A stretch of DNA of 64,000 nt, taken from positions 36,031 through 100,030 of the IMG/VR virus record IMGVR_UViG_3300033696_000004, one strand, 5' to 3'. The notes under the pieces were generated by a model. The model worked only from the letters and a program-made list of their open reading frames with translations, was not told the DNA's origin and ran no database searches. Shown one piece after another: positions 2,561 through 3,333 of this stretch. Both the position numbers and the translations under genes were made by a program. The DNA is from a virus. Its lineage: Duplodnaviria; Heunggongvirae; Uroviricota; Caudoviricetes. How positions within the stretch are numbered: the stretch's first letter is position 1; the number at the start of each line of letters is the position of its first letter.

Positions 2561-2692
2561 GGGTGTAGCTTATTATCAAGTGCGTTCAATCTAGAAACGA
2601 ATGCATAAAGGTATAGATAGGTCAAGCACTTTAATGTTAGTCTTGCAAGTAATAGCATTAATTCGTGGGTTCGATTCCCACTACATCTACTC
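2561..2692 (+). ncRNA. ~130-nt tRNA-like element (degenerate or expanded tRNA, or stable small RNA)
   Basis: gggtgta at the 5' end pairs (with 2 G-U) to tacatct directly after a good T arm gtggg-ttcgatt-cccac. The interior is ~55 nt too long for a tRNA and has no canonical D arm. Confidence 0.3.
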
Positions 2693-2812
2693 AACTTTTC
2701 CAATTAGTGATCTTATGAGAGTATTAACTAGAAAGGCTGACATTCAGCAAAACCTACTAATTATTTGAATCTTAATCAAACCATAGAGTAAGTTCAGCCT
2801 GAACAATTTAAT

Positions 2813-2889
2813 CCGAGTGTAGCGCAGTTTGGTAGCGCATCTGGTTTGGGACCAGAGGGTCATAGGTTCAAATCCTATCACTCGGACCA
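2813..2889 (+). tRNA. tRNA-Pro (UGG)
   Basis: Acceptor ccgagtg/cactcgg, D arm gcgc..gcgc, anticodon stem tctgg/ccaga with loop ttTGGga, T arm atagg-ttcaaat-cctat, CCA encoded. Confidence 0.75.
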
Positions 2890-2895
2890 ATTTAT

Positions 2896-2971
2896 AGTTT
2901 CATAACTCAGTTGGGAGAGTGCTTCCCTTACAAGGAAGAAGTCGCTGGTTCGAGTCCAGTTGGAACTACCA
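2896..2971 (+). tRNA. tRNA-Val (UAC)
   Basis: Acceptor agtttca/tggaact, D arm actc..gagt, anticodon stem cttcc/ggaag with loop ctTACaa, T arm gctgg-ttcgagt-ccagt, CCA encoded. Confidence 0.7.
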
Positions 2972-3079
2972 AACAATGTGGTAAAATCGTGATGAACTGA
3001 CTATAGCAAACCTAGGAACTGCTGTAGGTGAAACATCATAAAGGGGAGTTGTAAAGATACTCACCACCACACCAAACAA

Positions 3080-3178
3080 TGAAGTAGCGTGGATGCTATG
3101 GGTTCGATTCCCTACAATCTCTGGATGGGTGAGTAGCTATAGATGCTACAATAGAAAGTGGTTCGACTCCACTTGACT
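3080..3178 (+). ncRNA. tRNA-like degenerate element containing two T-loop-like motifs
   Basis: gaagtag at 3080 partially pairs with tgacttc after T arm agtgg-ttcgact-ccact. An internal second ggg-ttcgatt-ccc motif is present. Preceded by the repeated leader ccaaacaatgaag. Confidence 0.25.
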
Positions 3179-3190
3179 TCGACAAACAAT

Positions 3191-3321
3191 GAAGATGCTT
3201 ACATTCGTGTAAGGAAATGCAGAGAAATCGGTAGGAAATAATTGGTAGCCTCTCACATAATGCGAATTAGCGCAGGACTGTTATGCTACTATCCGAAGTG
3301 AGTTCAAGTCTCACCATCTTC
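3191..3321 (+). ncRNA. ~131-nt tRNA-like element (perfect 7-bp acceptor plus T arm, expanded interior)
   Basis: gaagatg (3191-3197) is perfectly complementary to catcttc, which directly follows T arm gtgag-ttcaagt-ctcac. The interior is ~55 nt longer than a tRNA. Preceded by ccaaacaatgaag like element 3080. Confidence 0.3.
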
Positions 3322-3333
3322 ACCTTTTACAAT

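Follow-up and report, generated by a model that had tools for sequence, protein, structure and literature searches.

Candidate non-decoding, tRNA-shaped RNA genes in the tRNA operon of a deep-branching T4-like phage, one of them with a counterpart in vibriophage KVP40

The species 1 and 2 RNAs of bacteriophage T4 have been known for about fifty years. Reviews of 2010 and 2022 state that their function is unknown, and describe rnaC as the gene of a stable late RNA (PMC3014915, PMC9697503). In the T4 annotation, rnaC (species 1, 137-139 nucleotides (nt)) and rnaD (species 2, ~120 nt) come after tRNA-Arg, and Rfam contains no family for either. We aligned rnaC from six Tevenvirinae phages (T4, T2, VR7, a Karamvirus, Kc304 and TG1) and built a covariance model, R1, from them; the consensus, in which 9 pairs covary, runs from an acceptor-like stem through a long arm and a hairpin to a T arm. 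Here we examine four elements, E1, X, E2 and E3, that lie on the plus strand inside the tRNA island of a 64,000-nt stretch of phage DNA (positions 36,031 to 100,030 of IMG/VR record IMGVR_UViG_3300033696_000004), called the window in what follows. They are likely, if by no means certain, to be non-decoding, tRNA-shaped RNA genes of a tRNA operon, with stable products of the species 1 and 2 type. Underneath this reading lie the sequences and pairings themselves and two results: E3 is conserved and shows covariation, and every tRNA model fails on the elements.

In tRNA, the stacked acceptor stem and T arm is the feature recognised by RNase P, by the CCA-adding enzyme and by the enzymes that modify the T loop, and the same module serves as an RNase P handle or a mimic in mitochondrial tRNA punctuation, in the mascRNA of MALAT1, in YrlA and in transfer-messenger RNA (tmRNA). 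The elements described here likewise contain a non-decoding acceptor/T-arm module; the families are unrelated.

The order of the genes is tRNA-Lys, tRNA-Asp, E1, tRNA-Pro, tRNA-Val, X, E2, E3, tRNA-Leu. The initial annotation of the block, which counted three "degenerate or expanded tRNA-like elements", described E1, E2 and E3 correctly and overlooked X; it also ended E2 at 3178, where 3181 is the right position.

2561-2689, plus strand: E1, a predicted 129-nt tRNA-shaped RNA (from sequence, fold and a 7/7 scanner match); acceptor 2561-2567/2682-2688, long arm 2568-2622, hairpin arm 2631-2661, T arm 2665-2681, discriminator A 2689, no encoded CCA
2978-3074, plus strand: X, a 97-nt element (from its fold and its start right behind AACAAU); closing stem 2978-2982/3066-3070, discriminator A, encoded CCA 3072-3074
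3081-3181, plus strand: E2, a degenerate tRNA-like element (from sequence); acceptor 3081-3087/3174-3180 (6/7), T-loop fragment 3097-3114, anticodon-like arm 3133-3149, T arm 3157-3173, discriminator G 3181
3191-3322, plus strand: E3, a predicted 132-nt tRNA-shaped RNA (from its KVP40 counterpart and agreeing minimum-energy folds); acceptor 3191-3197/3315-3321, H1 (a UUCG hairpin) 3198-3213, GAAA, H2 3218-3233, H3 3234-3294, GAA, T arm 3298-3314, discriminator A 3322, then CC

The acceptor stem of E1 is formed by GGGTGTA and TACATCT, which pair at 7/7 positions (5 Watson-Crick and 2 G-U pairs), and its T arm, GTGGG-TTCGATT-CCCAC, directly precedes the 3' acceptor strand. E3 pairs GAAGATG with CATCTTC, 7/7 Watson-Crick, and has the T arm GTGAG-TTCAAGT-CTCAC directly 5' of the CATCTTC strand. 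The acceptor of E2, GAAGTAG with TGACTTC, has 5 Watson-Crick pairs, 1 G-U pair and 1 mismatch. The pairing of an acceptor strand behind the T arm, noticed at the outset, thus holds at 7/7 in E1 and E3 and at 6/7 in E2. X is closed by GUGGU and ACCAC, and its encoded CCA resembles the 3' ends of the true tRNAs of this phage. A canonical module, in which a 7-base-pair (bp) acceptor adjoins a 5-bp T stem that has a UUCRANN loop, is present in E1 and E3; E2 departs from it in the acceptor mismatch, and X in having a 5-bp acceptor and a non-canonical 9-nt loop.

We scanned both strands of the whole window for a T arm with a 7/7 acceptor partner 95-175 nt upstream. Hits of at least 95 nt on the plus strand were E1, E3 and four insert-bearing tRNAs near 23.6 kb (see below), and nothing else, so that all of them fall within tRNA clusters; the minus strand gave nothing. 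Within the first 13 kb the scanner recovers 15 canonical tRNAs together with E1 and E3. Local shuffles give P ~0.03 for E1 and P ~0.03 for E3, and the E2 acceptor pairing is not significant on its own. ARAGORN calls no tRNA at E1, E2 or E3, in standard or in intron mode, and the Rfam tRNA model matches none of them at its gathering score or at E<=10, which bears out the earlier remark that their interiors do not fold into a normal D/anticodon arrangement. At score threshold, a D arm plus an anticodon arm with a 5-bp stem, a 7-nt loop and U33 is found in none of the three, and because these arms are lacking the elements would be unable to decode.

Comparative evidence is available for E3. We compared the stretches 2972-3333 and 2553-2812 with 50,697 phage records by blastn; the KVP40 group was the sole match, and for E3 alone. 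Scanning IMG/VR with E3 patterns returned KVP40 itself; the corresponding scans for E1 and X, and a single scan of JGI metagenomes, gave chance matches only, those for E1 and X in coding DNA. The KVP40 counterpart (NC_005083, complement(178302..178426), or L001 8660-8784 in our numbering) lies in unannotated DNA between tRNA-Arg-2 and the promoters of tRNA-Leu-3(UAG), so that both copies are found just upstream of a tRNA-Leu(UAG). An identical, unannotated copy is present in phages phi-pp2, VH1_2019, PVA8 and PG216. The annotation therefore omits this element in 5/5 KVP40-type records examined, and the four additional genomes add no covariation, their copies being identical to that of KVP40. 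The KVP40 copy is 125 nt long compared with 132 nt in E3, has the 3' tail AAU instead of ACC, and is placed directly behind tRNA-Arg.

Globally the two copies are 67% identical, which is within the range of tRNAs for the same amino acid in the two phages (55-71%), while the spacers around them do not align at all. Folded independently, they give the same set of helices in the same order. H1 is CUUACA-UUCG-UGUAAG in E3 and CCUA-GAAA-UGGG in KVP40; a GAAA linker joins it to H2, which reads UGCAGA...UCGGUA in both and has a variable tip. H3 begins with GGA/UCC in E3 and GAG/CUC in KVP40, opens into an AAUAAU internal loop, and continues as UGGUAGC/GCUACUA in E3 and UGAUAGC/GCUAUUA in KVP40, again with a variable tip. 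The T arm and the segments GAAAUGCAGAG, CGGUAGRRAAUAAUUGRUAGCCUCU and ACUGUUA are identical. The pairs were compared in a block alignment checked against both sequences: of 33 base pairs, 22 are unchanged, 1 is changed on one side, 8 are changed on both sides in a compensatory manner, 2 are gapped and none is broken. Both features proposed as diagnostic of an E3/KVP40 family, namely helices kept by compensatory change and shared single-stranded blocks, are seen in this comparison of two sequences. Because of the tRNA-level conservation, the eight compensatory and no broken pairs, and the unalignable spacers, E3 appears to be a structured RNA under selection, neither a relic nor a recent transfer.

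E1 and X have one hairpin module in common, which forms the end of the long arm in each.

2580-2606, plus strand: E1 hairpin, 8-bp stem GUGCGUUC/GAAUGCAU, 11-nt loop AAUCUAGAAAC (2588-2598) with the palindrome UCUAGA
3001-3027, plus strand: X hairpin, 8-bp stem CUAUAGCA/UGCUGUAG, 11-nt loop AACCUAGGAAC (3009-3019) with the palindrome CCUAGG

The loops, AA-UCUAGA-AAC and AA-CCUAGG-AAC, are identical at 9/11 positions, and the two differences (U...A and C...G) preserve the 6-nt palindrome. The stems differ at 7/8 positions and pairing stays complete. The two strands of the window together hold 199 hairpins that combine a stem of at least 7 bp with an 11-nt loop, and this type of loop is unique to the pair (2/199). 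Since the loop is kept while the diverged stems remain paired, there is evidence of a shared, putatively functional hairpin; the partner of the palindromic loop could be the loop itself, in a kissing interaction, or a protein. Of the two folds, that of E1 has a z-score of -2.69 (2/200 shuffles are equally good), and that of X, in which a long arm and a non-canonical T-like arm follow the closing stem, has a z-score of -2.89. E1 begins 8 nt past the CCA of tRNA-Asp, behind the spacer AAUUCUAU, which is of the same kind as the spacers between pairs of canonical tRNAs (AAUUCU, AAUUCAU and AAUUAU).

E2 looks different. It has two T-loop-like motifs, as already recognised, GGTTCGAYTCC at 3101-3111 and at 3160-3170. 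In its 3' two thirds, an anticodon-like arm (GUAGC-UAUAGAU-GCUAC) is followed by a short variable region, by a well-formed T arm and by the acceptor strand. When 3086-3110, which holds the first T-loop motif, is taken out, ARAGORN reports a weak tRNA-Leu(UAG) with A33, and such calls arise from 5/5,100 deletion variants. A functional tRNA-Leu(UAG) is found downstream of E2 and E3, from 3334. E2 is probably a decayed tRNA-Leu(UAG)-like copy with a fragment of a T loop.

The starts of three elements are marked by a short leader.

2969-2978, plus strand: CCAAACAATG, made of the CCA end of tRNA-Val, the leader AACAAU and the first base of X
3072-3081, plus strand: CCAAACAATG, made of the CCA end of X, the leader AACAAU and the first base of E2
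3182-3191, plus strand: ACAAACAATG, made of the leader and the first base of E3; 9/10 match to the decamer

The decamer had been counted three times, and only the copies at 2969 and 3072 are exact, the sequence at 3182 being ACAAACAATG; the extended form, CAAACAATGAAG, does occur twice, at 3073 and 3183. Its interpretation as a duplicated processing leader does not hold. AACAAT or ACAAT also stands upstream of the canonical tRNA-Tyr, tRNA-Lys, tRNA-Asp, tRNA-Pro and tRNA-Leu and of the insert-bearing tRNA-Asn, and this leader also stands immediately 5' of rnaC in Kosakonia phage Kc304 (CCAAACAAT, directly before CGG) and of tRNA-Leu-3 in KVP40. As far as these sequences tell, AACAAU is the usual leader of tRNAs in this island and in T4-like clusters generally, not specific to the odd elements; this in turn supports the view that X, E2 and E3 start where a tRNA would start. 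A longer spacer motif, UUCAGCAAAC(A/C)AU, which joins the TTCAGCA of the insert core discussed below to the AACAAU leader, is found in tRNA islands at 9654 of the window, at L001 10372 and 10998 of KVP40, and at L005 15551 of Vibrio phage 1.081.O, and may be a shared processing signal.

How close are these elements to the stable RNAs of T4? Like E1-E3, rnaC lies between tRNAs in a cluster of tRNA genes of the same orientation; it is located beside a homing-endonuclease gene, has no encoded CCA, and ends in a canonical T arm followed by an acceptor-like closing stem. Its interior of ~100 nt, a long arm and a hairpin in place of the D and anticodon arms, is laid out as in the 129-nt E1; E3, by contrast, has four internal arms, not three, and the T4 acceptor has two U-U mismatches where those of E1 and E3 pair throughout. 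Neither R1 nor nhmmer connects the sequences, and R1 likewise fails to pick out the KVP40 copy of E3. The best nhmmer match aligns AAUAAUUGGUAGC of E3 to the corresponding arm of the Karamvirus rnaC. As for rnaD, this stable RNA, not a tRNA, is placed between a tRNA and species 1, and like X it has an encoded CCA and no canonical T loop, but there is no sequence similarity between the two, the fold is different, and rnaD has no palindromic-loop hairpin. The suggestion that the elements are counterparts of rnaC and rnaD thus stands as an analogy of location and of the E1 layout, and falls as a statement of homology; what is supported is a resemblance to T4 species 1 RNA in kind and place.

The same phages contain another class of oversized tRNA genes, with which the elements could be confused. 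There are five in the window (23645-23766, 23771-23890, 23915-24037, 24051-24174 and 24197-24316), five in KVP40 (L001 5245-5366, 5632-5756, 5873-5987, 5996-6119 and 7670-7785) and two in phage 1.081.O (L005 11629-11749 and 11994-12114). In KVP40, three are annotated as tRNA-Pseudo-3, tRNA-Pseudo-4 and tRNA-Pseudo-5, and two copies are unannotated. All 12 genes of the three phages have an insert of 45-55 nt at the anticodon loop, with a core made of a short C-UGAYAA-G hairpin followed by YRUUCAGCA. The tRNAs that host it differ in identity (Asn GUU, Ile UAU and others), and the insert looks like a propagated, intron-like element, judging from its sequence. We found no splicing mechanism for it, nothing in the literature on KVP40 pseudo-tRNAs beyond counts, and nothing on phage tRNA introns of this kind. 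Two degraded copies are recognisable near the elements: at 2052, just downstream of an HNH gene, TTCAGCA is followed by a T arm (region 2046-2120; Rfam tRNA score 22.4 bits at 2058-2116), and CTGACATTCAGCA is found at 2736-2749, with the motif at 2743.

A gene of this type also exists in a Tevenvirinae phage. Kosakonia phage Kc304 (MZ348424) has, at L007 2583-2708 upstream of tRNA-Arg, an unannotated 126-nt gene whose 7-bp acceptor is perfect and whose D arm is of the long-variable-arm tRNA type (AUG-AAAUCGGUAGA-CAU). Removal of ~37 nt turns it into a tRNA for ARAGORN, with an unstable anticodon call (Leu, Tyr or Ser), and because of this the gene can be read as an insert-bearing tRNA. In KVP40 itself, tRNA-Pseudo-2 (L001 9562-9645) scores above the Rfam gathering threshold for tRNA-Sec (49.2 compared with 47 bits), and a weaker tRNA-Sec match is located at L001 9834-9928 (39.7 bits).

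The initial annotation offered the alternative that E1-E3 are older, decayed members of this class, in which a ~50-nt insert interrupts the anticodon loop of a normal tRNA. The two groups occur in the same genomes, with intact acceptor and T arms and similar total lengths (114-123 nt and 129-132 nt), the operon also contains remnants of the insert motif, and ACUGUUA of E3 and its KVP40 copy is faintly like CUGUUAAG, the hairpin loop of one insert. Yet the insert-bearing tRNAs retain a full D arm and anticodon stem, and removing the insert restores a tRNA, which is not so for E1, X and E3, where no D arm is recognisable behind the acceptor stem and the insert core is absent, as it is in E2. ARAGORN in intron mode calls four of the 23.6 kb genes. 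We scored single deletions with ARAGORN (1,431-4,040 per element) and obtained no tRNA call for E1, X, E3, the KVP40 copy or T4 rnaC; the positive controls gave 233 and 842 calls for two of the 23.6 kb genes and 392 for the long Kc304 gene. Double deletions, ~65,000 each for E3 and the KVP40 copy, gave no call either. Decayed insert-bearing tRNAs are present in the island, and E1, X and E3 are not among them; as an account of the block, such an origin is very unlikely. A block of neutral wreckage, i.e., four dead tRNA copies left by duplication and homing-endonuclease traffic and slowly decaying with no RNA role, would suit E2, with its T-loop fragment, A33, 6/7 acceptor and shuffle-level fold. 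It would also go with the two HNH genes of the island, the insert-tRNA remnants at ~2052-2116 and 2736-2749, the lack of relatives of E1 and X, and the absence of an E3 counterpart from phage 1.081.O. It does not account for an E3 as conserved as real tRNAs with its compensatory changes and unalignable surroundings, for the E1/X loop kept on fully diverged stems that still pair, or for the intact acceptor and T arms of E1 and E3, and we regard it as unlikely.

Working tRNAs of exotic shape, for example suppressors that would read UAG by means of the CUA within AAUCUAGAAAC and AACCUAGGAAC, are scarcely credible: the loops are of 11 nt on 8-bp stems, X has C and not U before CUA, and there is no D arm. 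The same low standing applies to a tmRNA-like function. The Rfam models for YrlA, tmRNA and tRNA-Sec score far below threshold on the elements; the weak tmRNA match at 3089-3325 (18.7 bits; gathering score 47) starts inside E2 and spans E2 and E3, and we rejected it. A short AUG...stop frame can be read in both E3 and its KVP40 counterpart, but the frames are unlike in length and sequence, and positions 3 and 70 form A-U in E3 and G-C in the KVP40 copy, so that the G3-U70 alanine identity pair is missing. It is equally improbable that the block is a protein-coding or DNA-level signal. Open reading frames (ORFs) of 48-57 amino acids overlap E1 (2601-2768 on the plus strand, 2557-2703 on the minus strand), and the loop palindromes are also DNA palindromes, TCTAGA and CCTAGG, that might be endonuclease sites with HNH genes close by; but the ORFs match no PHROG family, no Shine-Dalgarno sequence was seen, and the compensatory changes in E3 and in the E1/X stems are the signature of pairing in RNA.

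The interpretation of the four elements as non-decoding, tRNA-shaped RNA genes has its own weak points. The fold of E2 is no better than that of shuffled sequences (z = -0.44), and that of E3 taken singly reaches only z = -1.41. E1, X and E2 have no relatives anywhere searched, and their structures are single-sequence folds; the E3 family comprises two distinct sequences only. Vibrio phage 1.081.O has no E3 counterpart at the matching place, and because it is missing there, the element is dispensable for some relatives. An encoded CCA is missing in E1, E2 and the KVP40 copy, unlike in most tRNAs here. With filters off, R1 gives 9.8 bits to E1 and 5.8 to E3, less than to the ordinary tRNA-Val (13.6) and tRNA-Lys (12.3), and nhmmer searches with rnaC in both directions find nothing significant (best E = 0.93). 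A metagenome scaffold of 128.6 kb (ENA ERZ28627235) is the only source of this phage.

If the elements are indeed RNA genes, the acceptor stem and T arm, stacked coaxially and kept in each of them, would be the part that processing enzymes recognise. RNase P would cut at the 5' end, the 3' end would be trimmed, and CCA would be added where it is missing, giving stable species of ~95-132 nt comparable to T4 species 1 and 2 RNAs, the first of which is reported in literature of the 1970s-80s to be processed by RNase P. Given this module and the tRNA-type leaders, we infer that the elements are cut out in the manner of tRNAs and persist as stable RNAs. In E. coli, polycistronic tRNA transcripts are divided into their members by RNase P (PMC2190699, PMC7049720). 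On balance we favour a role of all four elements as punctuation for RNase P, by which the upstream tRNAs would be left with short 3' trailers: spacers of 100-130 nt would become substrates of the enzyme, and the trailer of the upstream tRNA would measure only 6-9 nt. Such a role would account for the persistence of the acceptor and T arm beside freely changing interiors in E2 and perhaps in E1 and X. The conserved internal loops of E3 point to something further, for which binding to a factor that recognises the tRNA shape is the likeliest candidate; tentatively, as one possibility that we rate below an even chance, E3 and perhaps E1 and X would also be tRNA mimics that bind a tRNA-recognising factor through family-specific loops. 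The more radical idea, in which E3/KVP40 and E1/X are dedicated trans-acting mimics whose loops trap a host tRNA-recognising factor, is quite doubtful. The tRNA machinery would mature and stabilise such RNAs through the acceptor/T-arm handle, the target might be a defence nuclease or a tRNA-modifying or processing enzyme, and the loops in question would be GAAAUGCAGAG, AAUAAU and ACUGUUA in E3, and in E1 and X the self-complementary ones, which resemble the kissing loops of RNA dimerisation.

The phage itself branches deeply among the T4-like phages. No cultured phage has a gp43 DNA polymerase with more than 55% identity to its own, the closest being those of Cronobacter phage S13 and Aeromonas phages, and none of the phage records aligns with the region studied except over single tRNAs. 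The locus of Aeromonas phage ZPAH1 reached via a grcA-like gene has no tRNA island. ARAGORN finds 18 tRNAs in the window, on the plus strand throughout, and Rfam adds 3 large-insert tRNAs around 23.6 kb; tRNA-Ala and tRNA-Arg are not among the 18 canonical tRNAs of the window, and the 18 other amino acids are covered. The elements appear to be part of a single tRNA operon, and co-transcription from tRNA-Lys to tRNA-Leu would be bounded by the following two sites.

2001-2028, plus strand: promoter-like site TTTACT-16-TATACT (consensus scan, 9/12 matches), which could start the Lys-to-Leu operon
3530-3553, plus strand: hairpin GGAAUCC-UUCG-GGGUUCC followed by UUUUUU, like an intrinsic terminator (read from the sequence), at the operon end after tRNA-Leu

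The first is a putative promoter by virtue of its consensus match; similar GTTTAC...TACAAT sites are found upstream of tRNA-Leu-3 in KVP40. The consensus scan that gave it did not list the terminator-like hairpin at 3530-3553. Two HNH homing-endonuclease genes lie within the island (714-1175 and 1494-1997; PHROG E-values 1e-30 and 1e-14), in the same way as segB lies inside the tRNA cluster of T4. Directly 3' of tRNA-Lys, at 2254-2300, there is a perfect 12-bp hairpin (CTTAATTAATAA...TTATTAATTAAG), and a further one of ~10 bp is located near 2322-2345. Directly past the operon terminator, a radical SAM gene (3624-4688) overlaps an adenylosuccinate synthetase-like gene (4612-5682); the pair may be a nucleotide or base-modification module, and the radical SAM protein has no close relative in IMG/VR. 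Farther downstream, the ORF 26836-27948 combines a NUDIX domain with a cytidylyltransferase-like domain (20.8 bits, just under the Pfam cut-off of 21), and resembles the NAD-salvage enzyme described for KVP40.

The elements would add new sequence families to a class of phage RNA already known, and one of them is conserved, and unannotated, in a phage that can be cultured. If our reading is right, distant T4-like phages too put non-decoding, tRNA-shaped RNAs among their tRNA genes, drawing them from different sequence families. The presence of the E3 family in KVP40, which can be grown in the laboratory, makes a 125-nt gene directly accessible to experiment and supplies comparative material on what this class of RNA does. 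If trans-acting mimicry proved true, it would also suggest a role for T4 species 1 and 2 RNAs. Programs that search for tRNAs skip genes of this sort, and the tRNA islands of phages would accordingly hold more RNA genes than their annotations list.

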